Virus record (IMG/VR): IMGVR_UViG_3300043418_000072
Location: 231,362 to 295,361 of that record
DNA: 64,000 bases
Reading direction: 5' to 3' (one strand)
Source: a virus
This document shows, one piece after another, positions 34,040 to 56,305 of this stretch. A program made the translations under genes and the position numbers. Within the stretch, counting starts at the first letter, position 1. Every line of letters starts with the position of its first letter. Under the pieces are notes generated by a model. That model was not told where the DNA came from and made no database searches. It worked only from the letters and a program-made list of their open reading frames with translations.

Positions 34040-34068
34040 ATATGTCCTTTGTTGCTGTCTATGTGTAT

Positions 34069-34097
34069 ATTATAACACCGTTTTCATTGAATGTCAA
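34069..34097 (-). promoter_or_regulatory. Consensus sigma70 promoter TTGACA-17-TATAAT (minus strand)
   Basis: On the minus strand the sequence TTGACATTCAATGAAAACGGTGTTATAAT is read directly; it lies upstream of ORF 32906..34039. Confidence 0.7.
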
Positions 34098-34350
34098 TGC
34101 CCATGCGCACAATGTCAAGATCTGCGTTTTTGCAGCTGGACCCATCTGGGTACCAAACCAACGACCAACTTGGGGTGTGAAACATGGCTTCTTCGTCCCG
34201 CTTCTCGTTGGCAGGCTTGTATACTAAAGTAGTAATGACCCCATTACGCAACTGCACACGAGTTGGACCAGTAACTTCGCACATACGGCGCAGGCTCATA
34301 GTGAACTCGTTAAACTGACTGCGATTGCGGAACATTGCTTCGTTAATCAT
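34084..34350 (-). CDS. hypothetical small protein
   Basis: 88 aa; preceded by a consensus promoter and an AAAGG ribosome-binding site. Confidence 0.45.
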   Translation of the reverse strand: MINEAMFRNRSQFNEFTMSLRRMCEVTGPTRVQLRNGVITTLVYKPANEKRDEEAMFHTPSWSLVWYPDGSSCKNADLDIVRMGIDIQ

Positions 34351-34376
34351 CGGGTACCTTTTGCTGCTATGTAGTT

Positions 34377-34405
34377 ATTATAACACCAAAATCATTTCGG
34401 GTCAA
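34377..34405 (-). promoter_or_regulatory. Consensus sigma70 promoter TTGACC-17-TATAAT
   Basis: Minus strand: TTGACCCGAAATGATTTTGGTGTTATAAT followed by ...AAAGGTACCCGATG. Confidence 0.7.
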
Positions 34406-34761
34406 GCGTGGCCTTTCCCGAGTACTTCTTCGTTTTTAAGGCGGCGCATCATGTTTTCGTTGCGACGATCTTGTTCTTTGCGGGCACGTTTCTTTTCGTC
34501 GCTAACTTTGTTGAGCATGTCGTAGCCACGAGCCCATTCAATGCCAGTAATCCACACTTGTAACTGTTCAATGGTTCCGCTAAACAACATAGCGTCACGT
34601 GCGTACATGGGCAGTTCTTCATCACGCGGAAATACGCCAACTCGATCTCCGTACTCGCCGCCCCATTGTCCGCCGTGCTTGTCGTGTCCCCAACGCATAC
34701 CCATCTTGTGCAGGGTATCTTCGAGACGCTTAACTTTGAGAACTAAATCGTAACCCGCCAT
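34402..34761 (-). CDS. hypothetical protein
   Basis: 119-aa ORF. Confidence 0.4.
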   Translation of the reverse strand: MAGYDLVLKVKRLEDTLHKMGMRWGHDKHGGQWGGEYGDRVGVFPRDEELPMYARDAMLFSGTIEQLQVWITGIEWARGYDMLNKVSDEKKRARKEQDRRNENMMRRLKNEEVLGKGHA

Positions 34762-34927
34762 TTTTCAGTACCTTCCAAATTTTCTTTGCTTCTTCCTGCG
34801 TTACTTGTTTGCAGGCCTTACTACAGAACTGTGCCCAACCGCGTTTGCGGTCTGCTGTACGTGCTGTAAACAAATTATAACACGTTCGGCAATTATATTG
34901 TGCTGTTTGCCCGCGCATGGTTACCAA
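34730..34927 (-). CDS. small zinc-ribbon protein
   Basis: 65 aa; CRTCYNLF...FCSKACKQ. Confidence 0.35.
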   Translation of the reverse strand: MVTMRGQTAQYNCRTCYNLFTARTADRKRGWAQFCSKACKQVTQEEAKKIWKVLKNGGLRFSSQS

Positions 34928-35250
34928 CTAATCTGAATGCCGTAGTTTTGAATTGTGGGGCCGTTGCCGTTGTCGTCTGCTAGACCTCGTGGAACATATT
35001 TGTCCCCGTCTAACTTAATAACAGCACAATAACCCAATGTTTTGAGTTTGTCTACCACTGCTTGTTGTAAAGGTGTAGTTGTGTGATGTAGGTACTCAAA
35101 CTGCTCCACGCTACCCAGATGGATAAACACATTACGCTTGCCACCTTCGGCAGCTTTTTTCACTCTTTGCTCAACGCTGTGCTTCAAGTAGTCTTCAACT
35201 TCTTGACCACTTTGGTCATACAGTTCTTTGGCTTCTTTTGCAGTAATCAT
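34921..35250 (-). CDS. hypothetical protein
   Basis: 109-aa ORF. Confidence 0.4.
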   Translation of the reverse strand: MITAKEAKELYDQSGQEVEDYLKHSVEQRVKKAAEGGKRNVFIHLGSVEQFEYLHHTTTPLQQAVVDKLKTLGYCAVIKLDGDKYVPRGLADDNGNGPTIQNYGIQISW

Positions 35251-35516
35251 ACAATCTCCACTCGACCTTCGTCAATAAATTTGTCCCATGCTTGGCAGCG
35301 ATATCCGTTGTTGAAACTTTTATACACTGTGCCATCTTTTTTGATTTTCTCAAACTTATAGCTTTGGCGGCGCGGATCTTCTCGATCTTTGCCAACGCAG
35401 CCTAGAGCCCAGATGTTTGTTACACGATATAAACCGGTCTTCCAATCATCGCATTTATGAATGCCAGGAATGACTTCATTGAGTTTACAAACATCACCAA
35501 CTTTAAGTTTAAACAC
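35247..35516 (-). CDS. hypothetical protein
   Basis: 89 aa; coupled to the upstream gene by an overlapping stop/start. Confidence 0.4.
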   Translation of the reverse strand: MFKLKVGDVCKLNEVIPGIHKCDDWKTGLYRVTNIWALGCVGKDREDPRRQSYKFEKIKKDGTVYKSFNNGYRCQAWDKFIDEGRVEIV

Positions 35517-35848
35517 GCCAACTCCTCAGTTGCTGGGATAGAACATGCCAACAATCAGTGCAAGGGCTAGCCAAACACCCACAATCATTGCACACACTTT
35601 AAAAATTGTGATAATGAAAGTTGGAATAGCAAAGGCTGTCATTTCGATATACATTACAGTTTACCTTCCTTGGCCATACGAGCCCACTTGGCTTCAATTC
35701 GTGAACACTGTTCTTCAATTGCATCTTCGCGGCTTTGACCCGGAACAAAGATGTTATAAGCAATGATTGCCAGTCCCATCAACAGGATTGGGCTCAACAT
35801 AATCAGGGCGTTTACGCAGGCTTGCATAATGTTCCTTTACTTACTGTA

Positions 35849-36307
35849 TTAGTCAATTGAACCAGGCAACATTTGTGTCACTTTTTGGATGCCTGTTACG
35901 CACAAGTCAGCCACTTCGCGCACAATAACAAATGCCAGTGCAACCAACAGGAACGGTACACGGATGGCCCAAGCAGCAAACTTGCCAGCGTCTGTTAAAG
36001 CATGGAAGTATGCTTTGCGCTTGTCAGTGTCACCAATTGCTTCGCGCAAGCCATCAACTGTCTTGTAGTCATGCACATAGGTAGCCAACGTGCAGTTAGC
36101 CCCAATGATGGTGTCTTTGTTAACAAAGAACATGCGGAAGTGAGCATAAGCCTTTTGGAACAGGTTAAACTTCACACCGTAAAACTGTTCGCGCCAGCGA
36201 ATGTGCTGTGCTTGAACTTCCATGCGCTTGTCCCACTTTGGATCACGTTGTGTAGTAGTTGTCATTTTCTGCTCCTGTTGTTTGCTTGCTATGTAGTTAT
36301 TATACAA
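35849..36307 (-). CDS. hypothetical protein
   Basis: 152 aa; a consensus promoter lies immediately upstream. Confidence 0.45.
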   Translation of the reverse strand: MYNNYIASKQQEQKMTTTTQRDPKWDKRMEVQAQHIRWREQFYGVKFNLFQKAYAHFRMFFVNKDTIIGANCTLATYVHDYKTVDGLREAIGDTDKRKAYFHALTDAGKFAAWAIRVPFLLVALAFVIVREVADLCVTGIQKVTQMLPGSID

Positions 36308-36327
36308 CCAAAATCATTTCTGGACAA
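36299..36327 (-). promoter_or_regulatory. sigma70-type promoter TTGTCC-17-TATAAT with extended -10 (TGTATAAT)
   Basis: Minus strand: TTGTCCAGAAATGATTTTGGTTGTATAAT. Confidence 0.6.
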
Positions 36328-36601
36328 CCAAATGATCGCCTGTGCCGTCAAAAAACAGGCCTTTTATGTGGGTTTTTTGGCGCATTTCGTGCCCTGTTTT
36401 GTACTGGCTGCACCAGCTTTGGCCCTTGACACCGTGTGTAGTAACGGCGCAGTAGCTATAAGACGCCAAGTAGGGCTCGCCAACTGGGGTTTCTGTGCCA
36501 AATACTTCGTTAATCATTAGCAGCATTAAGAAGCCTACAACAAAAGTAGTAACTAATGTTACAGTCCAAATAATGATTTTAACTTTGGTTTCTACACGCA
36601 T
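36314..36601 (-). CDS. small membrane protein
   Basis: 95 aa; N-terminal TM helix IIIWTVTLVTTFVVGFLMLLMI. Confidence 0.4.
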   Translation of the reverse strand: MRVETKVKIIIWTVTLVTTFVVGFLMLLMINEVFGTETPVGEPYLASYSYCAVTTHGVKGQSWCSQYKTGHEMRQKTHIKGLFFDGTGDHLVVQK

Positions 36602-36626
36602 TGCTGGCCCTTCTTGCTATGTGTAT

Positions 36627-36655
36627 ATTATAGCAAAAGGACCATTTTCGAGCAA
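36627..36655 (-). promoter_or_regulatory. sigma70-type promoter TTGCTC-17-TATAAT
   Basis: Minus strand: TTGCTCGAAAATGGTCCTTTTGCTATAAT. Confidence 0.6.
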
Positions 36656-36685
36656 CCAAAATATCTAATACTCTAGTACTACTTT

Positions 36686-37210
36686 TTAAACTTCCAGTCC
36701 CAACATTTCCAAGCCCATGTTGTGCAGCTCACGGGTGCTTTCGATTGCATCCTCTGTGCTCATTGCTGCAAACGCTTTGGCGTGGAATTCTTCATCGGGC
36801 AGAATCTTTGCAAACACATCGCGAATGTCTTGTGCAATTTCTTCATCTGCTGCTAGTGCTCGGATACGAAGCAAGCGCATGGTTTCGGCGTGATGTCCTG
36901 CCCCTGCAATCTCTTCAAAAGAGTGCAAGTTATCCAGGATAGGTTCCCAATAACGTGTGTCCTTCATTGAAACTTCGGGCAAAGTCATGCCACGATCGGT
37001 TAGCAACTTACCAACCCACTTAGAGTGGGTAAGCTCATCGATTGCAATGTTTTCCAGCACTCGGCCGTATCGGGTAGCACGTTGTTCGTGTGCGAGATCA
37101 GCAATGCGCTCTGCTGCCAAGTATTCGCCAATGTACTGACGTTCAAGCCACTGCTTGAGTTTTGCTGGGTCTGCTTTGACTTGTGATAACCATTGTTTAG
37201 TTGTTTTCAT
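36686..37210 (-). CDS. putative ferritin-like four-helix-bundle protein (diiron-type?)
   Basis: 174 aa, all-helical composition with paired E/H residues (ELTHSKW, EEFHAKA); this is a weak call. Confidence 0.3.
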   Translation of the reverse strand: MKTTKQWLSQVKADPAKLKQWLERQYIGEYLAAERIADLAHEQRATRYGRVLENIAIDELTHSKWVGKLLTDRGMTLPEVSMKDTRYWEPILDNLHSFEEIAGAGHHAETMRLLRIRALAADEEIAQDIRDVFAKILPDEEFHAKAFAAMSTEDAIESTRELHNMGLEMLGLEV

Positions 37211-37219
37211 AGTGTTTCC

Positions 37220-37456
37220 TTATTTGCCCCACATCATTAAAAATCGCCAGATCACCAACTCATACATGGTCTGGCCCTTCATATTGCGTACTCGGCCAAT
37301 ATGAAAGTAACTGGTCTTTTCGTTTTCTCGATCAGTAATCCAAGTCCAACAATCTTCTGCCCACGTGACAGAGAACAAGTAGCCAAAAAGCGTGAAATAC
37401 TTTGGCTCATTCTTGCATGGATATGTGTTGAAATACTCTCTTGCTCGTTCACTCAT
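37220..37456 (-). CDS. hypothetical protein
   Basis: 78-aa ORF. Confidence 0.35.
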   Translation of the reverse strand: MSERAREYFNTYPCKNEPKYFTLFGYLFSVTWAEDCWTWITDRENEKTSYFHIGRVRNMKGQTMYELVIWRFLMMWGK

Positions 37457-37896
37457 GCTAATCCCTCACCATCTTCACCGTTCCACATACGATCCAGAAT
37501 CTCCGGAGTAACCATTGTTATTCCACCGTGCGTGTCCATTGTCACTGCCCACTGGTCGCTGCTAGACTTCCTGGTCCGAGTTCTGCGAGTACCAGTAGAG
37601 ATTCCCAACACCTTACGCTCTTCTGTGGACAGTTTAGCTAGTGCTTCTTCTCTTACACGGGCAACACGCTCTTTTTCCAATCGAGCTGCAAGTTTCCTGG
37701 CTTCGGCTTCTTTGTGCGCCTTCCACCACTCACGCAATTTGTCGTTCTTGAGCAACAAGAGGTCGGCCATACCATTTGCTTCAAGTTCTTCCATTGCCTC
37801 AACAGCAAACTTTTCAAACTTTGATTTGACTGGGCTCCGATCGAACCCGCCCCACTCAACGTCATCATCTTCATTCTCAATATCCCATGATTTCAT
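37453..37896 (-). CDS. hypothetical charged coiled-coil protein
   Basis: 147 aa; a run of minus-strand ORFs with stop/start overlaps, preferred over the Ser-rich antisense ORF 37301..38218. Confidence 0.4.
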   Translation of the reverse strand: MKSWDIENEDDDVEWGGFDRSPVKSKFEKFAVEAMEELEANGMADLLLLKNDKLREWWKAHKEAEARKLAARLEKERVARVREEALAKLSTEERKVLGISTGTRRTRTRKSSSDQWAVTMDTHGGITMVTPEILDRMWNGEDGEGLA

Positions 37897-37899
37897 CGT

Positions 37900-38124
37900 T
37901 TACTCCGCTAATGTGAACAAGAGGAACAAGTCCCGATGTTCGTGTTCAAATGGATTTCGCATGCCGACTGCTAGGTATCCAAATCGTGTATCCATATCGA
38001 TTGTGTCTTGTCCTTTGATCTTGGCTTTGCCGCTAATGGATTCTAGCTCAATGCCATCAGGTAGTTGCTCAAACTCTTTTTCTGTAAAGAGATACAACCT
38101 TGTTTCTGCGTCCCACAAAATCAT
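37900..38124 (-). CDS. hypothetical protein
   Basis: 74-aa ORF. Confidence 0.35.
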   Translation of the reverse strand: MILWDAETRLYLFTEKEFEQLPDGIELESISGKAKIKGQDTIDMDTRFGYLAVGMRNPFEHEHRDLFLLFTLAE

Positions 38125-38337
38125 TTTAATTCCTTATCGGAGGGGTCTTATTGACGTTGCCCCTACGCACACTGCGGGGTTACCCGTGAAGCCAAATCAA
38201 ATCTTCAAGTATGGTTAGCAGATATTCGTCAGACTTTGAATCAAACTCTGCAAACACATGATCTGCACCATGGCTATCTACAAATTCGTCTTCGCCGCCT
38301 ACCAACTCTCTCATTCGGTTAATTACTAGTTCACGCA

Positions 38338-38505
38338 TCATTGTTCTCCTAAATAGAACTGTGTTTCACAATCGGCACACTTGAATGGCTCTGCTGCATC
38401 GTAAAATTCTGTGCAGCCTTCCATTTCCTCAGCTACATAAAGCTCGCCGCCATTTGTAGTTGGGTTGGGCTGAATGTGTTGCTTACCGCAATTTGGACAA
38501 AACAT
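38338..38505 (-). CDS. small zinc-ribbon protein (CxxC...CxxC), not in supplied ORF track
   Basis: Hand-translated: MFCPNCGKQHIQPNPTTNGGELYVAEEMEGCTEFYDAAEPFKCADCETQFYLGEQ; its stop overlaps the ATG of the next small ORF. Confidence 0.35.
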   Translation of the reverse strand: MFCPNCGKQHIQPNPTTNGGELYVAEEMEGCTEFYDAAEPFKCADCETQFYLGEQ

Positions 38506-39048
38506 GATTAATCTTCTTCCAATTCAATATCGTCAGCAATGTTAGCAATATCATCAGCCATGGTTTGCAGTTCTGCACGGAAATCAGGGTGTGCATGACC
38601 AACTACTTCTTGAATCAATGCTGCCGCTTGAGCCAGCTTACCAATTTGTTCAAATTTATCCATTGTGTTATCCGTTGAATCCAATTATGTCTTCAAACAA
38701 TGCCAGCAAGTCTGCATTGGACATTTGCTCTAATTTTGCAACAGGAAACTCTTCGCCGTAGCTGTCACAAATGATGCCATTGTGGGCACACTCTTGTAAA
38801 CGTGCAATGACTAGATTACGCACCGTAGTATGCCTCTAGTTCAATTTGAAAACCAGCTTCGCTTTGCTCAAAAGCCTCGTCTGCTGTTTCCACGTTAAAC
38901 AAAAACAAATCACCATCCCAAATTTGATACATAAAAATCCTTAAGACAACAATAAAAGAAAAGCCAACAACACCGCAAAGCCCGGGTGTCCGCAAATAGC
39001 TAACACTATAACTGCAATCCACCCAAGATCTTTACTCATTATAACTCC

Positions 39049-40077
39049 TTAGTTAGGCTTCATGCAAGTGGTACGAGCCATTGCAGTCCAGTTATTAGGA
39101 AAGCTCTTGCGCAAGTCTGCAATCTTAAGAGCCATGCGCAAACTCATTTCACGCAACTTGTTCTTGTTAGCGTCCATGAAATCAATGATCTCATCTTGGG
39201 CAATCTGATCAAACTCGTAGTCTGCAAACAACTCGCCATCTGCTGCAATTTGACGGATGCGAAGCATCTTGTCACGCATGGTATCCAGTGTCAAGTCCAG
39301 ATAATGACAGCGTGATTGCAGTGCATCAAGGTGATCACGGAGCTTCTGGCTCTTCATAGTGTCAAACTTCAAGTTGGTGATAAAAATCACAGAACCGTTG
39401 AAGTTAAAGCTGTCTGGGATACCTTCGCGGCGCAGAGCACTTGACTCGCTCAACCAAGAAATCTTACGCTTCTTGCCCGAGTCCAATGCACCTTTCAGCA
39501 AGTTAAGCGACACGTCATCAAGCAAGATGCCGTCGCAGTCATCAAACACCAGCACACAATTTGCGTCACTGTACTTGTACAGAGTTTGGTACAAGCCGAT
39601 TGGGGTAGCAGAGCCCTTAACAACTTCTGCACGGAGACGATTGCCTGCAATTTGATCTAGCAGTGTTGCCTTTTCAATTTCTTGCTCAACACCGTAGCTC
39701 TTACCAACGCCAGGAGGGCCGCTAACAATCATAGCACGAATGTCGCCGTTGGTTGCAGCCTTAGTCATCTCGTGCAAGATTTCAAAGCGCTCGCGGATAC
39801 GTGTAATTGCTTCCTCATCAGATTCTACAACTACCTCTGCATGGGCTTGCACTGCGGCAACGCCTGCATCACCTTCAGTCACAAACTCGTAATCAAACGG
39901 ACCAGTGACCTTGATGCGAATGTCTTCCGGAAAGCCAGGAAAAGCACCACCATTTTTAACAGTAACGTAACCACCTTTGGCGCTGGTCTTAAACTGCTCT
40001 ACAAGCTCAAATGTTTGACCTGAGACATCAGTGGTACGATAGGCGCCGCTGCGGATACGAACAAAACTGTTTGACAT
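39049..40077 (-). CDS. AAA+ ATPase
   Basis: 342 aa; Walker A VSGPPGVGKS, Walker B VLVFDDCDG; a consensus promoter lies upstream. Confidence 0.65.
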   Translation of the reverse strand: MSNSFVRIRSGAYRTTDVSGQTFELVEQFKTSAKGGYVTVKNGGAFPGFPEDIRIKVTGPFDYEFVTEGDAGVAAVQAHAEVVVESDEEAITRIRERFEILHEMTKAATNGDIRAMIVSGPPGVGKSYGVEQEIEKATLLDQIAGNRLRAEVVKGSATPIGLYQTLYKYSDANCVLVFDDCDGILLDDVSLNLLKGALDSGKKRKISWLSESSALRREGIPDSFNFNGSVIFITNLKFDTMKSQKLRDHLDALQSRCHYLDLTLDTMRDKMLRIRQIAADGELFADYEFDQIAQDEIIDFMDANKNKLREMSLRMALKIADLRKSFPNNWTAMARTTCMKPN

Positions 40078-40106
40078 GCTTTTTCCTTTTTGCTGTTTAA
40101 GTGTGT

Positions 40107-40135
40107 ATTATACGATGGATTTCATTTCGGGTCAA
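40107..40135 (-). promoter_or_regulatory. Consensus sigma70 promoter TTGACC-17-TATAAT
   Basis: Minus strand: TTGACCCGAAATGAAATCCATCGTATAAT. Confidence 0.7.
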
Positions 40136-40141
40136 CCGAAA

Positions 40142-40423
40142 TTACATGCTCCAATAAGTTTCGCTAGCAGGGTTGCAGCACCAAGGAGTGTCATGTGCAA
40201 TTTCCACATCCTTGCCAGTCATCAAGTTCTTTACTACTTTAGTAGTAGAAACATACTCGATACGATACTGATCTACAGTATACATTCCCGAAAGCAAGAG
40301 CTCAGCAACTTCGCGCTTGATGCCTGCTTCGTCGCGGTGCCAAACAGTGGTACTAACCAAACGTTCGCCAGTTTTGCAACGACGATCCAGTTTGTAGATG
40401 TACATGGTGTAAGATTGCTTCAT
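40142..40423 (-). CDS. hypothetical protein
   Basis: 93 aa; a promoter and an AGGAG ribosome-binding site lie upstream. Confidence 0.45.
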   Translation of the reverse strand: MKQSYTMYIYKLDRRCKTGERLVSTTVWHRDEAGIKREVAELLLSGMYTVDQYRIEYVSTTKVVKNLMTGKDVEIAHDTPWCCNPASETYWSM

Positions 40424-40453
40424 ACCAACTCCTGTTTTGCTTGCTATGTATCT

Positions 40454-40482
40454 ATTATACTGCTTCTGCCATTTTCGGGCAA
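40454..40482 (-). promoter_or_regulatory. sigma70-type promoter TTGCCC-17-TATAAT
   Basis: Minus strand: TTGCCCGAAAATGGCAGAAGCAGTATAAT followed by AGGAGTTGGTATG. Confidence 0.6.
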
Positions 40483-40605
40483 ATTGAGTCTAATACTTGT
40501 TGTGTAAAAACAACACCACCATACGCTTGCTGGTACGTGTCTGCAACAGATTTCAAGAAGAAAGTGTAAACTTTGCCCTTGCTAGTGATTAGCGTGTACT
40601 TCATT
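40456..40605 (-). CDS. small ORF (49 aa) behind its own promoter, not in supplied track
   Basis: Hand-translated MKYTLITSKGKVYTFFLKSVADTYQQAYGG...; the next promoter is embedded in its 3' end. Confidence 0.3.
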
Positions 40606-40614
40606 GAAAAAGCC

Positions 40615-40643
40615 CTGTTTGCTGCAATACATGTATTATAGCA
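40615..40643 (-). promoter_or_regulatory. sigma70-type promoter TTGCCC-17-TATAAT
   Basis: Minus strand: TTGCCCAATAAAGGCCCTTTTGCTATAAT. Confidence 0.6.
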
Positions 40644-40669
40644 AAAGGGCCTTTATTGGGCAACCAAAA

Positions 40670-41668
40670 TTATGTTGCTGCGGCCCAGAATTTGCTATGT
40701 CTTGCAAGCCATTCCATTACCGGGAGCACCAGCTCAGGACTGTGTTGTGTAATCTGCTGCATCACAAACGGCATATGGTGGTGTGCTTCTGCACGTTCAC
40801 CTAGCTCGTACAAGAAATGATGCCATTTATGTATGTTCCACCCTTTGTAGTCCATCCTAGGAATAAAATAATCAACTACGTCCAAGTCAGCCAACTTAAC
40901 CACATTCCATTGTCCGTGAAATCCAAATCCCGGTTTGTATTCATATGAGCCTTCTTGTATCTCGTGACTAAACTGCTGTGCCAATTCGGTTGGAGCAAAT
41001 TTAATACCGTACTTGCTTTCTAAGAGCTGCTTATGGTCAACACACTGGACTGCGTCTTCTTCAATGAACTTACGTTGTTCGTGCAACTGAATTGCAGGAT
41101 CCTTGCAGGCCAATAAGAGTTTACGTGAGCGTAGAGAGAACCCACCGTTACCCATGTTTTGGCCTTCGGGAGCCCATGGCCAAACTGCACCAATGTAATC
41201 ATACTCAAGAAACTGATCGGACCACTTGGTACCGTCGTATGCCATTGCATCCCACTGTGCAAACAAGATATGGTCAGTGTCAATGAACGGCCACATGTTT
41301 TTAAGCATAATCTCGTTGTAGTCCCTAAAGCTCTTAATAGGCTTGGTAAGCACTGTTGTGCTGCCGGGTAGGATCTCCCTGTCACTGAATACTACAACTT
41401 CCTTAACGTCAATGTGTTTAAGAGTTTCCTCTAATGCACGACGAGCTAAGTCGTGGTACATGGTTTCCACCGTGACTAACGTGATGCTTTTACTCATAAC
41501 TCTTCTCTTCAGTAATGCTGCTACCGCAGATGGTGTTGATTGCTTTCTTAATAGCTGCACGTTTGTCGTTTTTAAGATACACCTGCCTAGCTGCATTAAC
41601 AAACTCGTCGTTAAACAACTGCTTCTTTTCACATGCACGTTTAAAGTCTTCGATGTCCCACAGCTCAT
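40670..41668 (-). CDS. putative glycosyltransferase-like protein (first gene of sugar cluster)
   Basis: 332-aa ORF heading the sugar-gene run; no diagnostic motif found, so the functional call is weak. Confidence 0.3.
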   Translation of the reverse strand: MSCGTSKTLNVHVKRSSCLTTSLLMQLGRCILKTTNVQLLRKQSTPSAVAALLKRRVMSKSITLVTVETMYHDLARRALEETLKHIDVKEVVVFSDREILPGSTTVLTKPIKSFRDYNEIMLKNMWPFIDTDHILFAQWDAMAYDGTKWSDQFLEYDYIGAVWPWAPEGQNMGNGGFSLRSRKLLLACKDPAIQLHEQRKFIEEDAVQCVDHKQLLESKYGIKFAPTELAQQFSHEIQEGSYEYKPGFGFHGQWNVVKLADLDVVDYFIPRMDYKGWNIHKWHHFLYELGERAEAHHHMPFVMQQITQHSPELVLPVMEWLARHSKFWAAAT

Positions 41669-48221: not shown

Positions 48222-48249
48222 AGTATTCCATTGGGTTAGTTGAACTACT

Positions 48250-48278
48250 ATTATAGCAGAGCATGAAAGTATAGTCAA
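48250..48278 (-). promoter_or_regulatory. Consensus sigma70 promoter TTGACT-17-TATAAT
   Basis: Minus strand: TTGACTATACTTTCATGCTCTGCTATAAT. Confidence 0.65.
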
Positions 48279-48300
48279 GAAAAAGCCCACCGAAGTGGGC
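48279..48300 (-). terminator. Rho-independent terminator downstream of dCMP deaminase/tRNA unit
   Basis: Minus strand: GCCCAC-TTCG-GTGGGC followed by TTTTTCTT. Confidence 0.65.
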
Positions 48301-48303
48301 TAG

Positions 48304-48777: not shown

Positions 48778-48794
48778 AAGGCGGGGTAATGTTA

Positions 48795-48868: not shown

Positions 48869-48876
48869 ATTTCCTT

Positions 48877-48951
48877 TGGTACCTTGTGACGGTTTCGAAC
48901 CGCCGACCCTCTCCGTGTAAAGGAGACGCTCTACCCCTGAGCTAACAAGGC
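48877..48951 (-). tRNA. tRNA-Val (TAC)
   Basis: Acceptor GCCTTGT/ACAAGGT, D-arm TAGCTCAGGGGTAGAGC, anticodon stem TCTCC/GGAGA with loop TTTACAC, T-loop TTCGAAA, CCA encoded. Confidence 0.7.
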
Positions 48952-48957
48952 ATGTAT

Positions 48958-49032
48958 TGGTTGCAAAGGCCGGAATCGAACCAACTGTCTCCAGGTTATG
49001 AGCCTGGTGAGATACCATTTCTCTACTCTGCT
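48958..49032 (-). tRNA. tRNA-Met or tRNA-Ile2 (anticodon CAT)
   Basis: Anticodon stem CCAGG/CCTGG with loop CTCATAA, D stem GAGA/TCTC, T-loop TTCGATT, CCA encoded; the 1:72 pair is mismatched, which is initiator-like. Confidence 0.6.
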
Positions 49033-49039
49033 TCAATAT

Positions 49040-49606: not shown

Positions 49607-50408
49607 AATCGAGTTCCTTTCTGTTTGAATTTAATAGGGGGGTAACGTATGGCAAGTCAATTGCGGGACAATGTGCAATGTACATTAGATAGAGTCGATT
49701 TTCAAGGCAACCTTTTTCTAAAGCAAAATACAACAAGCAGAGGATACCAATATTGCCGAGCATCAATAAACAAGCAACTTAATGCCATTTCATCTCGGAG
49801 CACTGGATCACGATTGTATATTCCAGTAAGCGTTTCAAGTGCTAACTAGATGTGCAATCTCTCATCTCCACACGCTACAGCTAGTTTTGAGAAACTAGCA
49901 AAAATGGAGGACGGTGTAGGAGTTTAACCTACCTTATACCGAGTTTGCAATCCGGCGCATAAACGCTCTGCCAACCGTCCATAAATCTTATATGTAAACA
50001 CACTAACACGGCTACCACACCTTACGATGCCCTGTGACCGCACTCCAGGTTAGATAATGTGTTTGCATATAAGTGGAGGACTGAGAATACATCTCTCCCA
50101 ACAACACCTCGGACATTATTACGATCCTTGCGAGACCGCTTTCTTCCGACTTCCACTAAACCCTACTTGCATAGTAGTCTAGTCTGCTGTCAGCATCGCC
50201 GTTTTTAAAGACAGGCAGTAGTCTTGTCGCCATATGCTATTCTACGCTTTCTATCCCGTTGACCTTTAGAGCCATTCACCACCGCTAAGTAGCTACGAAA
50301 CTTCCTGCATAAACAGATTTCACCTTGCGAGTTACGTCTGACTTAGTTAGCTTGCGCCCTAAGTATTAGATGCTTTTCACATATGACCGAGTCAGTCTTT
50401 GCGTTTTG

Positions 50409-50480
50409 TAATGATAGCGGGAATTGAACCCGCCGCATTCTGTTTAAGAGACAGACGTTCTACCAATGAACTATATCAAC
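50409..50480 (-). tRNA. tRNA-Lys (CTT)
   Basis: D stem GTTC/GAAC, anticodon stem TCTGT/ACAGA with loop CTCTTAA, T-arm GCGGG-TTCAATT-CCCGC; one T:T mismatch in the acceptor stem. Confidence 0.5.
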
Positions 50481-50989
50481 CTACTGCGATGTGCTGACTC
50501 AGTTGCTGCATACTCTTTTGGAATACACAATACAACACACCACGTACCTTTTGCCTTGCGAGCTACTCAGTCGTCTTTTGCGACCAATGTTCGTATTACT
50601 ACGTCCACCAACCACTAAAACTGCATACGAGCTCTTAGGTGCAACCCTTCGAACCAATACACTACCCTTTCTCATACCAATTAACAAAGTTGGTTTCGCA
50701 TAGAAGTCAGCACCACCTGTTACTTTCCATCTACTCAAGTTCCCCTTGATGCAATCTCAGGCTTGTAAGCAAACGTTCTTCCCTATGCACTTTGCGTCAC
50801 TGTTACAACCACCCGTCGCTGAGTGATCGCTCCCTCACAGGAGTGAGCAGGCTTGTCTAAACGAACTATTGCTAGCGGAGTTATGTAGGCATACCTCCTT
50901 TGGCTGTGTCACCACAGTTATTCTTCGCATCAAGCTGGGCGAACCATACTCTTTGCAGGACATTAAACTGCCCCAAATTCTTATACAAC

Positions 50990-51065
50990 TGCACACTCAC
51001 AGGATTCGAACCTGCGACCCGGGCAATAGCCCGAGCTATGATCCAACCATATCAGCGTGGCCTAC
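50990..51065 (-). tRNA. tRNA-like element with canonical T-arm (cloverleaf not resolved by hand)
   Basis: GCAGG-TTCGAAT-CCTGT T-arm on the minus strand, but no complementary acceptor stem was found. Confidence 0.25.
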
Positions 51066-51151
51066 GCCTTTATGTGCATGTGTATAAGAACTTCTTATAC
51101 GTATCTATTTTAAAGAACTTGCTTGTTAGCACTATCACTAACTAAGCTGCT

Positions 51152-51180
51152 ATTGTAGCAAACTTTTCATTTGCTGTCAA
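51152..51180 (-). promoter_or_regulatory. sigma70 promoter TTGACA-17-TACAAT inside non-coding stretch
   Basis: Minus strand: TTGACAGCAAATGAAAAGTTTGCTACAAT. Confidence 0.6.
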
Positions 51181-51516
51181 CAGTTATTTAGAAATTTATT
51201 TTGATGCCTCTTTCGCCTGCTTACAAGGCTACGGGTAAGACTTGCGTCTTTTGGTTGACCCTCATGCAACCAGCGGAGCGTTACTCTACTTTATTGCAAT
51301 CCTTCTTCCTGCGTATTGCTACGTGGAATAGATCGTTTCTAACTCATAGGTGTTAGACGCCACTGTAGTCTCTTACAAACTACACAAGAGTGCCCAGCTT
51401 TCTTTCTGGACCAAATTTTCAACAAGACTCACGCAACCTAATAGCGTGGTAGGCCTGTTTACTTTACATCAAAACAAATTTTTAAAGAACGTTTGTTAAT
51501 TGCTTAACATGTATCT

Positions 51517-51545
51517 ATTATAACAAGAGTTTCATTAAGTGTCAA
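51517..51545 (-). promoter_or_regulatory. Consensus sigma70 promoter TTGACA-17-TATAAT firing into ORF-free region
   Basis: Minus strand: TTGACACTTAATGAAACTCTTGTTATAAT followed by the conserved AGATACAT motif. Confidence 0.7.
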
Positions 51546-51574
51546 GTACTTTTAGAAAAACTTAAAATAATAAA

Positions 51575-51658
51575 TGGTGCGTAAGGAGAGACTCGAACTC
51601 TCAATCCTCGCGGCGCTGGCTTCTAAGACCAGAGTGTATACCATTCCACCACTTACGC
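51575..51658 (-). tRNA. tRNA-Leu (TAG), long variable arm
   Basis: Acceptor GCGTAAG/CTTACGC, anticodon stem CTGGT/GCCAG with loop CTTAGAA, 13-nt variable arm, T-arm GAGAG-TTCGAGT-CTCTC, CCA encoded. Confidence 0.65.
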
Positions 51659-51669
51659 ATTGTGATAAA

Positions 51670-52845
51670 TTACTTATCATCTAAGCTGTTATTATAAACA
51701 AATTTGACTTGCTTGTCAACTATGTGTTTATCCATAATAGCTTCAAAATCTTTTGGGTCTTGTGCTTTTGGGGCACAGTAACCGCATATACATCTTGTTC
51801 TAGCACATTGTATAACAGGCATGGCTTTGTTGTCAATGTTTTTCTGCACTTGTTCTAGTATAAGATTACCATTTGACAAATTACCAATTGGACCAACTGT
51901 GCCGTTAAAGCGCATACGGCAATCCTTGTTTGTGTACACATCGCCATTGATCTGTTTAATGTACAAGAAGTACCAATTAACACTACAACTCCATCCCATG
52001 AAATCTGCATGTGGCACAAAGGCTGTTGGGTGTTGTAAGTCTTGGTTAGTGCATAGCTTTCGACCACCACAACAACCACGACCTACCTTACCCATGCCAA
52101 CTGTGTCTGTTGACACTGCATCTAATGCCTTTGTTAGCGCATCTCTACTCTTAGCAGGGGTACGCGACTTGTAGTAATCTTGAAAGTAAATAAACTGTTC
52201 TTTGTTATATTGCCACTGTGGTGTAGGAGTGTCGTTTGCTTTAACTACATAGTCAACACTGTGTGTCTTGCAAAACTCGATAGCTTGTTGGCTAATATCC
52301 CACAAAACAGGATCGTTGTGCATCACAAACACCACCTTTTGGCGCCTGCCGATGGCCTTATTATAAAGTATGTTGTCTAGTACTTGCTGTCTCTGTTTAG
52401 GCAATGCACTGCTGTGAAAACTAACTGTAAACTCATCAATTAAGTTTGCAACCTTTTCCCAAAGATTCTTGCCAGCCACTGCATTACTTGTGCATGTAAC
52501 AGTTAATGGCCATTCGTATGTGTGTCTTGCACGAACCTGTTCAAGGATCTCAACAATGTCTGGATGAAAGATGCTTTCGCCGCCGTAGACATTAAGAACA
52601 ACCATGCGCTGCCATTTAGGCTTTAGCTGCATGTACTTGTCTGCATAAGCAAACATGAAGTCAATGGTCTTTAAGCATTCGTCTTTAGGAGGATGCGCTG
52701 TGCTATTGTCGTGGCCACCATACTCAATGCCAGTTGAGCAGTAGTCGCAATCCAAATTGCACTTCATTGTCAATTCCCAGTCCAACAAAAATGTGGGACG
52801 GTTAACTGGATCGATTGCAGGCTCAATTGAGATAATTTTATTCAT
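51670..52845 (-). CDS. Radical SAM enzyme with C-terminal Cys-rich (SPASM/twitch-like) region
   Basis: 391 aa; CNLDCDYC is the CxxxCxxC radical-SAM cluster motif, and there are about 10 further Cys in the C-terminal half (CCGGRKLC, CICGYC). Confidence 0.7.
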   Translation of the reverse strand: MNKIISIEPAIDPVNRPTFLLDWELTMKCNLDCDYCSTGIEYGGHDNSTAHPPKDECLKTIDFMFAYADKYMQLKPKWQRMVVLNVYGGESIFHPDIVEILEQVRARHTYEWPLTVTCTSNAVAGKNLWEKVANLIDEFTVSFHSSALPKQRQQVLDNILYNKAIGRRQKVVFVMHNDPVLWDISQQAIEFCKTHSVDYVVKANDTPTPQWQYNKEQFIYFQDYYKSRTPAKSRDALTKALDAVSTDTVGMGKVGRGCCGGRKLCTNQDLQHPTAFVPHADFMGWSCSVNWYFLYIKQINGDVYTNKDCRMRFNGTVGPIGNLSNGNLILEQVQKNIDNKAMPVIQCARTRCICGYCAPKAQDPKDFEAIMDKHIVDKQVKFVYNNSLDDK

Positions 52846-53473
52846 AAGTTAATACCAAATGATCTGCAAACCAATCTCTGCAATAGGCAAAGGGTTTACC
52901 AAATCTAAGGTTAAACCAAATTCGTTCGTTTGTATTTGAGATGCTGTGTAGTTGTTGGATATCAAGGATCCATCCTGTGTCTTTTACACTACGATAGGAT
53001 TCGCAGATGTCTGCGTTTCTTGCGTAGGTAGTGCTGTCACAATCAGCGAAGAAATAATTAAACCCAGTTTGCTGACTTTCGTGATCCTTATGCTCTGCAC
53101 CATCGCCTACCATGTAGTTAATGCTAGCAAAAGTAGGACCAAGCTCTGCAAGATCATCTAGCATCATTGGCAAAAAGCGCATGGTAGATTCAATTAGCTT
53201 GCCTGTTACTGAATACCATTCTGCACTACCATTAGTAATGTGACTAACTGTGCCCGATGATCCTAGCTCATAGTGATATCCGTAATCACTGTATTTGTAT
53301 TCCCTAGTAATACCAGTTGATTGACTCTTTACTAGATCAATGCAGTGCTTTGCCACTTGAGCTGTTTTATCCCAGTTATTAACTATACGCACTGGGGTTT
53401 GAAACGTTAATGTATTCATAAAAGGGTTAGCCATGTAATTCTGTTTTTCAACCGCGGACCACTTGGTCCCCAT
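52838..53473 (-). CDS. hypothetical protein co-transcribed with radical SAM gene
   Basis: 211 aa; its start overlaps the radical-SAM stop; an internal Met start (MANPF) is possible. Confidence 0.4.
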   Translation of the reverse strand: MGTKWSAVEKQNYMANPFMNTLTFQTPVRIVNNWDKTAQVAKHCIDLVKSQSTGITREYKYSDYGYHYELGSSGTVSHITNGSAEWYSVTGKLIESTMRFLPMMLDDLAELGPTFASINYMVGDGAEHKDHESQQTGFNYFFADCDSTTYARNADICESYRSVKDTGWILDIQQLHSISNTNERIWFNLRFGKPFAYCRDWFADHLVLTYE

Positions 53474-53700
53474 TGATCAGATGGGCAACCATGATCTAGA
53501 TCAAGCAGCATCTTGCGAATGCCTACCTAGACCACACGTTGTGGGCTCGAAACGGTTCTCAATTTTAAAATCGTTTTGTTGCCTCGGGGGTTCCCGATAC
53601 TTAAACACAGGCCACTAATTGCAAGATTATTGATACTACGCCTACCACTGGTAACAGAAAGCTGCCCTGCTCATGGCTAACTCTTTTATGAACAGTTTGT

Positions 53701-53729
53701 ATTATACAGACTGCTAGTAGATAAGTCAA
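53701..53729 (-). promoter_or_regulatory. Consensus sigma70 promoter TTGACT-17-TATAAT with about 220-nt leader before ORF 52838..53473
   Basis: Minus strand: TTGACTTATCTACTAGCAGTCTGTATAAT. Confidence 0.65.
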
Positions 53730-53743
53730 TAAATATTGAACAA

Positions 53744-54646
53744 ATGCTATACGGTTTTTCAAATAATAAATTTTACATTGACATCCCTGCTTGCACACGC
53801 ACGGTGGGCAACATGCGTGAAGAAAGCGATCGCCATGCTCGAGATTTAGCTAGCCAATCCAATAAACTGTTGCTAACCATTAGCTCAGGAATTGACAGCC
53901 AAAGTGTGTTACATAGTTTTGTTACACAAGGCATACCAATTGAAACTGCATTTATGTACCTTCCCGGATACAATGATCACGAATATCGCAATCTTCAGTT
54001 AGTCGACAAAAAGTACGGAATCAAAACTCGCATTGTAGATCTTGATCCGCTAGCACTTGCTGATGAACTAATTGCCGAAGATGAAGCTACCGGCATCCAT
54101 CGATTCTTTTTGCTTAGTAAACGGTTTATAAGTCTACTACCGGACTCTGCAGATGTAGTGCAAATTATCCACGACCCACAAGTGTTAGTTAACAACGGCG
54201 TTCCGTACTATCACATGGGGCTCCACTATTGCGAAATCGAAAAGCCACGTGCATTTGAATTAGCAAAGCGATCTGGGCGCAACATCTTCTTTGGCGACAC
54301 CACCGAATTCATGTATAGTTTTTTAAACGATCCGGTGTACAGAGCTGTTGCAACGGCTGGCCAATTATACAATGCTAACGGACTATCTAAGCGTATGTTT
54401 AATGTCTATCGCGGAGACAACTGGGACTTTTATGTAAAGCCATTTATCTATGGTCAATACTGGAAGGACGAACTCATGTACTTCCCGAAGTATAACGGAT
54501 CTGAACGTATGCCATTTATTCGTCGACCATTTGATACTGTATCTCATTCGCTAGCAATTCCATTTACAGAACTGCTAGACCATATGGGCAACATCGGGGG
54601 CGGAGTTAAACGTTACGCATCCGACCAACAAAATACGAATGCTTAA
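53744..54646 (+). CDS. PP-loop-like protein, divergent third paralog (plus strand)
   Basis: 300 aa; LLLTISSGIDSQSVLHSF resembles the SGGxDS PP-loop and the downstream IVDLD motif, but is degenerate (SSGIDS). Confidence 0.4.
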   Translation: MLYGFSNNKFYIDIPACTRTVGNMREESDRHARDLASQSNKLLLTISSGIDSQSVLHSFVTQGIPIETAFMYLPGYNDHEYRNLQLVDKKYGIKTRIVDLDPLALADELIAEDEATGIHRFFLLSKRFISLLPDSADVVQIIHDPQVLVNNGVPYYHMGLHYCEIEKPRAFELAKRSGRNIFFGDTTEFMYSFLNDPVYRAVATAGQLYNANGLSKRMFNVYRGDNWDFYVKPFIYGQYWKDELMYFPKYNGSERMPFIRRPFDTVSHSLAIPFTELLDHMGNIGGGVKRYASDQQNTNA

Positions 54647-55754
54647 ACCCTTTTAGTCCGTCTGCGACACCGTTTTTGTATTCGATGTAGTCCCCGGCAC
54701 TCTGTGCCACGTACTCAAGCCCACGTTTCCATTGTGTTAACTCTCTAGACAAGGTGGGGTCGTTGTGGAACCATGCGTCAAACTCACTGTTCCAGTAACT
54801 AGTACCTTTGTCAGCTTGGAACCATGTGTCATCCCATGTAGTGTATAAGATATTGCGTAAAAATCTTTCGTGGTACAAGCGAACCATTTCTTTAGTTACG
54901 TTGCGCCACATACGTTGTCTCACAGGATTGGCTTCTAGCCAATGTTTAACCACGTGTGCTTGCTTGCAAATTAGTGGTGCCGTGTCCTTGGACCAGTAGA
55001 ACAACTCTGTTTTAATATTCGAGTATTCTGTGTTAAAGTCATTGACACTTGCAATATTAGCAGTCGCATCTGTGAAGTATAACACAAACTCATCATTTGG
55101 CGAAATTACTGTTCGTGGCTTATCTACCCCGACGATGATTGCAACCTTCTTGTCTTTATCAAATTGCTTTTTCAATTCAGCAAAATGAAAATAATTGTAT
55201 CTAAACAGTTGCCCAATTGACAGATAATCATTGCGCTCGTGTACCCATTCAACATCGTCGAACTGGCTCATTGAATTCAAGACTACGTCACTTACATCCA
55301 GGACTGTAATCTTAGTTTTAGGCAACTTATCATAAATGTATTGCAAACGTGGAATCGCTTGCAGTTGATGTTCTGCTGCAAAGTTAGAAGCTAACTTGTT
55401 ACTAGGATCGATGATTGTGAATTTTTCAGTTGCTTTAGTAATGTGATTAGTAACAATCTCATCTATGTGCAGATCCTGCCTAATAAAACTTTCAAGAATA
55501 TTATTTGTATCCGAGCCGCCGCTGTAGCTGAGAATCAAGTAGTCGTACTGTTCGCGAAGTTGTCTAGCTCGGGCGTCGTAGAGTTCGTCTAGTGTCTGCT
55601 CTGGCTCAATTTGCCACGGATATGCTGAGTACACATCGTTGTGAAACATCCATTCAACTGGCTTGTTAACTGTCTGGGAATATATGCAAGCATTAACCTT
55701 TGAGGAAAACTCTATCCCATTGCAGGTGTAATAGCTTAGATCTTTATCTATCAT
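54606..55754 (-). CDS. PP-loop ATP pyrophosphatase family protein, paralog A
   Basis: 382 aa; SYSGGSDTNNILESF is the PP-loop SGGxDS motif; clearly paralogous to 56291..57499 (the shared block EPEQTLDELYDARARQLREQYDYLILSYSGGSD). Confidence 0.55.
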   Translation of the reverse strand: MIDKDLSYYTCNGIEFSSKVNACIYSQTVNKPVEWMFHNDVYSAYPWQIEPEQTLDELYDARARQLREQYDYLILSYSGGSDTNNILESFIRQDLHIDEIVTNHITKATEKFTIIDPSNKLASNFAAEHQLQAIPRLQYIYDKLPKTKITVLDVSDVVLNSMSQFDDVEWVHERNDYLSIGQLFRYNYFHFAELKKQFDKDKKVAIIVGVDKPRTVISPNDEFVLYFTDATANIASVNDFNTEYSNIKTELFYWSKDTAPLICKQAHVVKHWLEANPVRQRMWRNVTKEMVRLYHERFLRNILYTTWDDTWFQADKGTSYWNSEFDAWFHNDPTLSRELTQWKRGLEYVAQSAGDYIEYKNGVADGLKGFKHSYFVGRMRNV

Positions 55755-55767
55755 TTATGTACTTATG

Positions 55768-55842
55768 TGGCCGGTCTTGAGAGGATCGAACTCCCACCCT
55801 CTGTTTCGAAGACAGAGATGATATCCATTTCACCAAAGACCG
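55768..55842 (-). tRNA. tRNA-Arg (TCG)
   Basis: Acceptor CGGTCTT/AAGACCG, anticodon stem TCTGT/ACAGA with loop CTTCGAA, T-loop TTCGATC, CCA encoded. Confidence 0.6.
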
Positions 55843-55846
55843 AAAT

Positions 55847-55923
55847 TGGCGACCCCCGAGGGATTCGAACCCCCAACACTCGGATTTGGAATCCGATGTT
55901 CTGCCAATTGGAACTAGAGAGCC
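55847..55923 (-). tRNA. tRNA-Trp (CCA)
   Basis: D stem GTTC/GAAC, anticodon stem TCGGA/TCCGA with loop TTCCAAA, T-arm GGGGG-TTCGAAT-CCCTC; acceptor stem with three G-U pairs; CCA encoded. Confidence 0.6.
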
Positions 55924-55928
55924 ATTTA

Positions 55929-56004
55929 TGGAGCGGATGATCGGGTTCGAACCGACGACCTCGACGTTGGCAACGTTGTGCTCTACCAGCTGAGCTACAT
56001 CCGC
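55929..56004 (-). tRNA. tRNA-Gly (GCC)
   Basis: Acceptor GCGGATG/CATCCGC, D-arm GCTCAGCTGGTAGAGC, anticodon loop TTGCCAA, T-loop TTCGAAC, CCA encoded. Confidence 0.7.
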
Positions 56005-56022
56005 ATTATACTTACTTATCAC

Positions 56023-56110
56023 TGGCGGAGCGTGTAGGAATCGAACCTACTCACCTCTTTCGAAATGACGGCTTAGCAAGCCGCTGCCTTAACCGGTCGG
56101 CCAACGCTCC
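56023..56110 (-). tRNA. tRNA-Ser (GCT), long variable arm
   Basis: Acceptor GGAGCGT/ACGCTCC, 3-bp D stem, anticodon loop TTGCTAA, about 17-nt variable arm, T-arm GTAGG-TTCGATT-CCTAC, CCA encoded. Confidence 0.7.
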
Positions 56111-56249
56111 GTATTCTTATCTAGTGAAAAACCTTACTAGACGGATCCAGTAATATCTAACACCTCTAAACTCTGGAATCCAACTTAGGTCTATTGGATT
56201 CACAACTTCTTTTGGAACGTTGCTGTATGCTTTTTCGATAGTCTCTTTA
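56109..56249 (-). CDS. small ORF (46 aa) between promoter and tRNA cluster, not in supplied track
   Basis: Hand-translated MKPKETIEKAYSNVPKEVVNPIDLSWIPEFRGVRYYWIRL...; it lies directly behind the consensus promoter. Confidence 0.3.
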
Positions 56250-56276
56250 GGCTTCATTGCATCGTCCCTTCTGTGT

Positions 56277-56305
56277 ATTATACACTATAGTTATTTATTT
56301 CGCAA
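56277..56305 (-). promoter_or_regulatory. sigma70-type promoter TTGCGA-17-TATAAT driving small ORF plus 4-tRNA cluster
   Basis: Minus strand: TTGCGAAATAAATAACTATAGTGTATAAT. Confidence 0.6.

Follow-up and report, generated by a model that had tools for sequence, protein, structure and literature searches.

Why would a large uncultivated virus place nearly the same promoter-like sequence in front of one small gene after another, and which polymerase would read it? The question is raised by a stretch of 64,000 nucleotides from the IMG/VR virus record IMGVR_UViG_3300043418_000072 (positions 231,362 to 295,361). We call this stretch the window, and it is the portion of the genome analyzed here. 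An initial annotation had described twelve near-perfect sigma70 promoters with a downstream box, shared by nine of them, and had proposed for them a role in the immediate-early transcription of small takeover genes by the host RNA polymerase. We find that the repeats are very probably real promoters for an RNA polymerase carrying the host's housekeeping sigma factor (sigma70/sigmaA-type), and that they form part of a class which a large clade of freshwater jumbo phages, so far uncultivated, has in common. We read them in this way because of their strand bias, their fixed distance to start codons, their conservation at orthologous positions in about 80 contigs, and a conservation above that of the flanking sequence in a relative that is ~91% identical.

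Nearly all genes of the window have minus-strand orientation, and its 48.8-62.2 kb segment contains 16 tRNA genes. It encodes a UvsW-like helicase that shares 48-51% identity with its counterparts in the jumbo phages Sinorhizobium phage Phosso, Atu_ph07 and the PA5oct group, and an IMG/VR relative of 320,767 bp (L001) is ~91% identical to the window at the nucleotide level. Because of these two similarities, we assign the window by sequence to an uncultivated jumbo phage that is only distantly related to T4. A megablast search with the 34-41 kb portion found no nucleotide match in cultured phages, and a BLAST search of the consensus cassette against cultured phages, jumbo phages included, returned only short DNA matches at chance level.

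A promoter family on the minus strand

The hexamers TTGACA and TATAAT, separated by 17 nt, are far more common in the window than chance allows. Four exact copies are present where 0.01 are expected, and 10 sites carry at most one mismatch to the hexamer consensus (0.52 expected), every one of them on the minus strand. With two mismatches allowed there are 25 sites against 9.7 expected, so about half are noise at that level. Combining a repeat finder with a position weight matrix (PWM), we identified 11 family members that share ~45-60 nt, each of them on the minus strand with a spacer of 17 nt. The matrix sets these 11 cleanly apart from every other site in the window. Our first version, with 70 columns and 11 seeds, was over-fitted, and we replaced it with a shorter iterated model and, against circularity, with a selection that uses the hexamers alone. 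Members are named below by the first base of their -35 hexamer (Table 1).

These results confirm the strand and spacing that had been reported but reduce the count from twelve to 11. Seven members, rather than nine, lie in the block of small genes at 34-40.7 kb, and four lie in the tRNA region. Three perfect copies (51545, 51719 and 62539) had been overlooked, the last of them beyond the range that was listed, which ends at the weak site 56305. Three sites (48250, 51152 and 53701, numbered by the other end of the core) had been described as diverging downstream. Of these, 48278 and 53729 are good sigma70-type sites that lack the other family features, and 51180 is a family member. The term near-perfect does not suit the block, where most -35 hexamers read TTGCCC, TTGTCC, TTGCTC or TTGACC.

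Likeness within the family extends well beyond the hexamers. The repeat finder groups copies of 46-50 nt into three families (D1, D2 and D8, with the 36655 copy as the D2 reference), and within the set 34405 resembles 36327 and 36655 resembles 40663. The extended pattern TATAATA-N4-CWTAG occurs seven times in the window against 0.03 expected, and is followed by (A)GCAA(A/C) at a variable offset and then by a purine-rich stretch resembling a Shine-Dalgarno sequence.

In the block, the units occupy almost every junction between small genes. As the initial annotation had noted, an ATG follows shortly: in all seven members it lies 25-33 nt past the -10 hexamer and is preceded by the purine-rich stretch. 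The units often overlap the stop codon of the gene upstream, another feature that had been recognized correctly. The TAA of open reading frame (ORF) 40455-40604 falls within the TATAAT of 40482, the TGA of ORF 34402-34761 within the TTGACC of 34405, and the TGA of ORF 36314-36601 within the spacer of 36327. The genes that follow encode small proteins, mostly without family hits, and an AAA-type ATPase. Outside the block, three of the four members lie 32 to ~270 nt ahead of a tRNA, and the fourth (51545) precedes a 326-nt stretch that lacks an ORF. The proposal of a host-polymerase promoter class is thus upheld by strand bias, fixed start-codon distance and conservation, while its restriction to small takeover genes is too narrow because four members drive tRNAs or non-coding RNA, one of them from inside a release-factor-like gene.

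Conservation of the class in related phages

Relatives of the AAA-type ATPase gene (39049-40077, phrog_1250) are present in at least 80 IMG/VR contigs, and we analyzed 80 such loci. We selected sites by the two hexamers alone, with no more than one mismatch in 12 positions, which keeps the remaining positions free of circularity. At a spacer of 17 nt this gave 187 sites in the direction of the genes and 4 against it. A further 49 sites have a spacer of 18 and 15 have a spacer of 16, while spacers of 15 and 19 are at background. The initial annotation had suggested a PWM scan for enrichment near gene starts. The iterated matrix finds 279 matches on the gene strand of the 80 loci and 7 on the other strand. 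Among the loci with upstream sequence available, nearly all have a promoter of the same design at the orthologous position before the ATPase gene.

Several positions outside the hexamers are conserved in the hexamer-only set: G-37 (0.55), G-36 (0.50), A-26 (0.65), T-24 (0.58), A-6 (0.71), A+1 (0.67) and T+2 (0.68). T-17 and T-15/G-14/C-13 are conserved likewise, and positions +6 to +13 are rich in A and poor in G. The class consensus reads GG-TTGACc for the -35 region, A-26/T-24 for the spacer and TGc-TATAAT-A for the -10 region, with C-1 A+1 T+2 and an A-rich start after it.

The close relative L001 provides a finer comparison. All seven block promoters are found there at syntenic places, with 96.9% identity over -45 to +19 compared with 91.4% overall. 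Two other regions of L001, neither of them similar to the window in nucleotide sequence, contain additional copies whose leader is the same, ACATAGCAA(A)GCAAAACAGGAG.

We also looked beyond these loci. Among the matches listed for TATAATA-N4-CATAGCA in viral contigs, 54 of 123 have TTG at -35 with a 17-nt spacer; these matches are unusable for per-genome counts, and they support no claim that CATAGCA is specific beyond the clade. Among the matches listed here and for TTGNCCNRAAATG-N10-TATAAT, both TATAATA-N4-CATAGCA and the TTGnCC-nRAAATG spacer seem to occur in many contigs, an observation that is only suggestive in scans run without a control pattern.

Predicted start sites and leaderless genes

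The conserved C-A-T places an A 7 nt after the -10 hexamer, and we took this base as the predicted +1. A dereplicated set of 177 promoters from the relatives allowed us to examine what lies at this position. In 28 of the 177, an ATG that opens at least 40 codons stands exactly at +1, compared with 0-2 at each other offset from -6 to +13. Most of these 28 genes lack a Shine-Dalgarno sequence, and they fall into recurring gene families, including ones of ~166 aa and ~390 aa. By sequence, then, leaderless genes make up ~15% of the class in the relatives. Leaderless translation needs a transcript that begins at or beside the AUG, and the position of the start site is therefore fixed computationally by these genes. 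Among the sequence-based arguments for the predicted +1, this pattern is the strongest. A comparable case is the leaderless PRM-cI unit of lambda, in which the start codon is also the transcription start; unlike PRM-cI, leaderlessness here is a frequent variant of one promoter class, with translation predicted from sequence.

The window itself contains one candidate. A sigma70-type site at 3225-3197 is followed by an ATG at 3190, exactly at the predicted +1 and in frame with a 236-aa ORF that ends at 2480. Mechanical ORF calling had begun this frame at an upstream TTG. We regard the gene at 2480-3190 as a candidate leaderless gene.

Taken together, these data suggest the following scheme. Each unit consists of a GG-TTGACc -35 region, a 17-bp spacer with A-26, T-24 and T-17, an extended -10 region (TGc-TATAAT) and A-6. 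Transcription would start at C-1/A+1/T+2, 7 nt past the -10 hexamer. In this lineage, the transcript would begin with AUAGCAA(G)CAAA and continue through an unstructured A/C-rich leader of ~25 nt that ends with AGGAG and the start codon. Many short transcripts could then be made by the unmodified host polymerase from the moment of DNA entry. What the analysis shows is the sequence pattern with its statistics, its coupling to strand and gene starts, its conservation and, through the leaderless genes, the position of the start site. That host RNA polymerase recognizes these promoters, that they are strong and that they act early is what we infer from the sequences, and the label immediate-early is a reasonable inference of the same kind.

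Several observations weigh against this scheme. Most block members have an imperfect -35 hexamer (TTGCCC, TTGTCC or TTGCTC), which makes very strong promoter activity an assumption. The A enrichment that would correspond to an UP element is weak, with A at 0.43-0.50 at positions -42, -44, -51 and -52 compared with 0.285 in the background. In three or four members the predicted start reads CTTAG or CTTAA, with a T at +1, and their exact start may differ from it. Finally, a sigma factor of the same specificity could be encoded by the phage itself, of whose genome 64 kb were covered.

Mobile cassettes as an alternative

Repeats of this length could also be maintained mainly as recombination substrates. 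The PeSL cassettes of T4-like phages, which consist of a repeated stem-loop, a sigma70 promoter with an N17 spacer, a Shine-Dalgarno sequence and a start codon, lie between small ORFans of variable regions and have been described in this way, including copies with TTGACA-N17-TATAAT in RB49 and phi1 (PMC4122927, PMC2839356). By analogy, our repeats would be mobile cassettes whose mutual homology allows small ORFs to be inserted, deleted or swapped among related phages; their promoter activity would be real, and recombination or gene conversion would keep them similar. The seven block copies do share with PeSLs the order of promoter, Shine-Dalgarno sequence and start codon among small ORFs that mostly lack family hits, and these ORFs are flanked by copies of 45-60 nt. 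The pairs 34405/36327 and 36655/40663 look like recent copies. In the relatives, moreover, the segment from -80 to -36 is more structured than its shuffles (t -8.5), with 41% of the segments at -8 kcal/mol or better.

This upstream structure is a feature of the clade but not of the copies in the window. Ten of the 11 members have no significant upstream stem-loop (z above -2), unlike PeSLs, and the stem-loop is missing because the promoters overlap the upstream coding ends. A terminator hairpin stands only before the non-family site 48278, which is identical in L001, lacks the spacer and leader motifs of the family, and is the sole PeSL-like arrangement of terminator plus promoter in the window. 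The breaks between the window and L001 are equally unfavorable: in the one pair compared, none of the three indels or replacements (38184-38507, 34846-34921 and 30922-32398) is bounded by family promoters, and we rejected PeSL-type shuffling on this ground. The extra conserved positions also hold in distant relatives, where recent copying cannot explain them. We consider the recombination explanation unlikely.

The conserved downstream segment

What is the sequence downstream of the -10 hexamer for? The initial annotation had described a box common to nine sites and had offered a translation enhancer as one of its roles. A shared segment does exist, but not as the box that was described: TACATAGCA is exact in three sites and has one mismatch in a fourth. 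Two further one-mismatch matches in the block fall within coding sequence, and overall this 9-mer with one mismatch is at chance (25 against 23.6 expected).

In the translational explanation, the segment is a leader that boosts ribosome loading on early mRNAs, and conservation near the promoter is secondary. Some properties of the leaders agree with this. They are A-rich and G-poor and are less structured than their shuffles (t +3.5 in the relatives; 0 to -3.9 kcal/mol in the window). Within the lineage the whole leader is repeated, including the AGGAG. We split the promoters of the relatives into 115 with a Shine-Dalgarno sequence and a start codon within 45 nt and 62 without. The A-richness at +10 to +13 is higher in the Shine-Dalgarno-led units (0.61-0.73) than in the others (0.44-0.66), and in the former the distance to the start codon peaks at +25 to +29.

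The core behaves differently. A-6, C-1, A+1, T+2 and A+6/+7 have the same frequencies in both groups, and so do not depend on a Shine-Dalgarno sequence or a start codon. The best-conserved part is also present at the tRNA and non-coding RNA promoters of the window, which have the CWTAG core and lack the GCAAGCAAA part, and leaderless genes have no leader at all. Because it is common to mRNA, tRNA and non-coding RNA promoters, the core acts at transcription and not at translation. As an account of the whole segment, a translational element is unlikely; an enhancing role is conceivable for the distal A/C-rich part, which may help translation judging from its composition. The near-identity of whole leaders within the lineage is best explained by the copying of promoter-leader cassettes. 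An Rfam search of the leaders found no match, and the only Rfam matches in the window are tRNAs and the GOLLD RNA described below.

In compilations of E. coli promoters, CAT is the classical consensus of the start site. The TACATAGCA box is best read as a discriminator, a CAT start site and the first bases of an unstructured A/C-rich leader that ends in AGGAG, with no separate element among them.

Possible recognition by a phage factor

The positions conserved beyond the canonical hexamers (GG at -37/-36, A-26/T-24 and ATAGCA at +1 to +6) could instead form a site for a regulator that is encoded or injected by the phage, or for an RNase, with a boost, shut-off or processing of early transcripts as the outcome. 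A phage-factor site had also been among the roles first proposed for the downstream box. Single copies contain inverted repeats that would suit an operator, namely ATTTCGG-TTGAC-CCGAAAT at 40135, TGCTAT...ATAGCA at 36655 and AATACATGTATT at 40663, and the extra consensus of T4 early promoters is equally unexplained (PMC2988021). Across the 177 promoters, however, no pair of columns is complementary beyond the chance of ~3000 tests (maximum z 3.9) and there is no dyad center, so the proposed box shows neither a dyad nor a covariation signal. The palindrome at 40663 is broken in L001. These two results led us to reject a dyad-symmetric operator, or a hairpin, whether around -35 or extending from -10 to +6. 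Single-stranded leaders, in turn, offer no substrate of the RNase III type. The conserved CAT is already accounted for by the E. coli consensus. It is documented that sigma70 itself senses the spacer (PMC3130263). Neither an operator nor an RNase site finds support here, where the RNase part concerns structure of the RNase III type and not RNase E or a RegB-like nuclease, and we consider this explanation improbable.

Improbable, too, is that GG at -37/-36, A-26/T-24 and ATAGCAA, a pattern of which parts are found again in many viral contigs that look unrelated, form a recognition code by which a phage or virion-injected factor, or an RNA mechanism dependent on the 5' end, would tell phage early promoters and transcripts from those of the host, for a boost or a scheduled shut-off; if it were true, the common occurrence of leaderless genes would belong to a strategy of expression that is independent of the host.

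Relation to known promoters

The architecture of the family is a familiar one. The promoters T5 N25, T7 A1 and lambda PL/PR have a CAT start ~7 nt past the -10 hexamer, and the transcribed region influences their performance. T5 N25 reads TATAATAGATTCATAAAT and the 40482 promoter reads TATAATAGATACATAGCA; the likeness is one of architecture only, and we claim no homology.

T4 early promoters combine UP, -35, TGn and -10 elements with additional consensus regions that are unexplained; they are read by the unmodified host sigma70 polymerase and serve small non-essential genes whose function is not known (PMC2988021). The window family resembles them in its near-consensus -35, TGn and -10 elements, its extra positions and its many copies before small genes. 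It differs in the GG-TTGACc form of the -35 region, in having only a weak UP-like A/T signal, and in its share of leaderless units. The T4-like late motif TATAAATA is not enriched in the window (4 observed, 2.8 expected). In PA5oct, 32 promoters with TTGAC and TATAATA motifs lie around mapped transcript starts, and a growth assay with rifampicin suggests that the phage is transcribed mainly by host RNA polymerase (PMC7318152). PA5oct belongs to the Rak2-like group, and its helicase is ~48% identical to that of the window; an A follows TATAAT in both, in a comparison made by motif description only.

We conclude that the family is best filed as phage early-type sigma70 promoters with an extended consensus, with GG-TTGACc and A-26/T-24 as details specific to the clade and with frequent leaderless use. 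No new principle is involved, as strong housekeeping-type promoters of extended consensus before small early genes are textbook knowledge for T4, T5 and related phages. The extra positions held across the clade, unexplained as they are in T4, and the high leaderless share are mildly useful points. The practical gain is in annotation: a ready promoter model for this large clade, transcription starts predicted to the base, a corrected start codon at 3190, and non-coding units that can be flagged (GOLLD with its tRNAs and the structured 326-nt stretch).

Table 1. Promoter family members and other sigma70-type sites of the window. Members are named by the first base of the -35 hexamer.
Name	Feature	Coordinates	Strand	Sequence elements	Leader and downstream unit
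34097	Family promoter and leader	34040..34099	-	-35 TTGACA 34097-34092, -10 TATAAT 34074-34069, predicted +1 34062 (CAT); identical in L001	Leader ATAGACAGCAACAAAGGA to ATG 34039; 377-aa protein with weak sub-threshold TPR hits; just upstream of block boundary
34405	Family promoter and leader	34351..34407	-	TTGACC-17-TATAAT (34405-34377), predicted +1 34370	Leader ATAGCAGCAAAAGG to ATG 34350; 88 aa, no family hit
36327	Family promoter and leader	36266..36329	-	TTGTCC-17-TATAAT (36327-36299), predicted +1 36292	Leader ATAGCAAGCAAACAACAGGAG to ATG 36265; 138 aa
36655	Family promoter and leader	36602..36657	-	TTGCTC-17-TATAAT (36655-36627), predicted +1 36620	Leader ATAGCAAGAAGGG to ATG 36601; 95 aa
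40135	Family promoter and leader	40078..40137	-	GG-TTGACC-17-TATAAT (40135-40107)	Leader to ATG 40077; 342-aa AAA-type ATPase, phrog_1250
40482	Family promoter and leader	40424..40484	-	TTGCCC-17-TATAAT (40482-40454), predicted +1 40447	Leader ATAGCAAGCAAAACAGGAG to ATG 40423; 93 aa
40663	Family promoter and leader	40605..40665	-	GG-TTGCCC-17-TATAAT (40663-40635), predicted +1 40628	Leader ATTGCAGCAAACAGGG to ATG 40604; 49 aa
51180	Family promoter core	51152..51180	-	TTGACA-17-TACAAT	tRNA-Pro, then GOLLD
51545	Family promoter core	51517..51545	-	Perfect consensus	~326-nt stretch without ORF or tRNA (51510-51185)
51719	Family promoter core	51691..51719	-	Perfect consensus	tRNA-Leu (51658-51575), beginning 32 nt after -10 hexamer
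62539	Family promoter core	62511..62539	-	Perfect consensus; inside release-factor-like frame (63023-62346)	tRNA-Lys genes from 62243 on
48278	Non-family sigma70-type site	48250..48301	-	Terminator hairpin 48301-48284 (z -3.7) directly before TTGACT-17-TATAAT (48278-48250)	
53729	Single sigma70-type site	53701..53729	-	TTGACT-17-TATAAT; AT-rich upstream	Divergent downstream sequence
3225	Sigma70-type site	3190..3225	-	TTGACT-17-TATAAT (3225-3197)	ATG exactly at predicted +1 (3190)
56305	Weak sigma70-like site, family membership doubtful	56277..56305	-	TTGCGA-17-TATAAT, PWM score 13	46-aa ORF

Non-coding transcription units

The members in the tRNA region point to non-coding units. Downstream of the 51180 promoter lie a tRNA-Pro (51078-50991) and then a GOLLD RNA (Rfam RF02032; 50543-50078, minus strand), with no other family promoter in between. 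The GOLLD match covers the full model and scores 196 bits, above the gathering score of 150 (E 4e-54), and a tRNA-Lys(ctt) at 50408-50480 is embedded in it. The GOLLD region probably extends up to ~50990. From this arrangement, GOLLD is probably co-transcribed with the tRNAs from the early-type 51180 promoter.

The stretch ahead of which 51545 stands (51185-51510, minus strand, ~326 nt) contains no ORF, tRNA or Rfam hit. Its predicted minimum free energy is -94.6 kcal/mol, with a z of -3.57 relative to shuffles. Folding predictions thus make it a candidate structured non-coding RNA that would be transcribed from the 51545 promoter.

The 62539 promoter precedes three tRNA-Lys genes, and its arrangement with the sequence downstream recurs in the viral contigs L119, L127 and L193. 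In the surrounding gene (62346-63023, minus strand), which resembles class-I release factors, a single frame contains both a PCRF fragment (62910-63023, E 5e-7) and an RF-1/GGQ domain (62346-62735, E 3e-20). One in-frame TGA at 62912-62910 breaks this frame, at the position that is occupied by Trp in RF1/RF2. General recoding of TGA was rejected, as TGA terminates 30 of the 84 long frames in the window. The gene could be subject to read-through or autoregulation, or it could be a pseudogene.

Predicted transcripts with a similar start occur elsewhere as well. Two groups of unrelated-looking viral contigs (L082, L085, L137, L159 and L166; L086, L088, L134, L161 and L163) have sigma70-type promoters whose transcripts would start with AUAGCAA. 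These run into conserved sequence with potential 5'-terminal hairpins and compensating changes, for example AGCAAGCA-GAAA-TGCTTG. They may be small phage RNA families.

Other features of the window

The remaining observations concern neighboring genes. A rubrerythrin-like protein is encoded at 36686-37210, within the block. Scattered among the tRNA genes, with minus-strand orientation, are genes for a dual-specificity/tyrosine phosphatase-like protein and two radical-SAM proteins (63342-63917, 60040-61248 and 51670-52845). The ORFs at 54606-55754 and 56291-57499 (minus strand; 382 and 402 aa, without family hit) share a 90-nt stretch with 72% identity (D7) and are probable paralogues, separated from each other by a tRNA cluster. 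Finally, direct repeats of 57-90 nt (D3, D5, D6 and D14) lie within 18937-19729 on the minus strand, within a 1192-aa ORF (18275-21853) whose product is, from its repeats, probably a repetitive, fibre-like protein.

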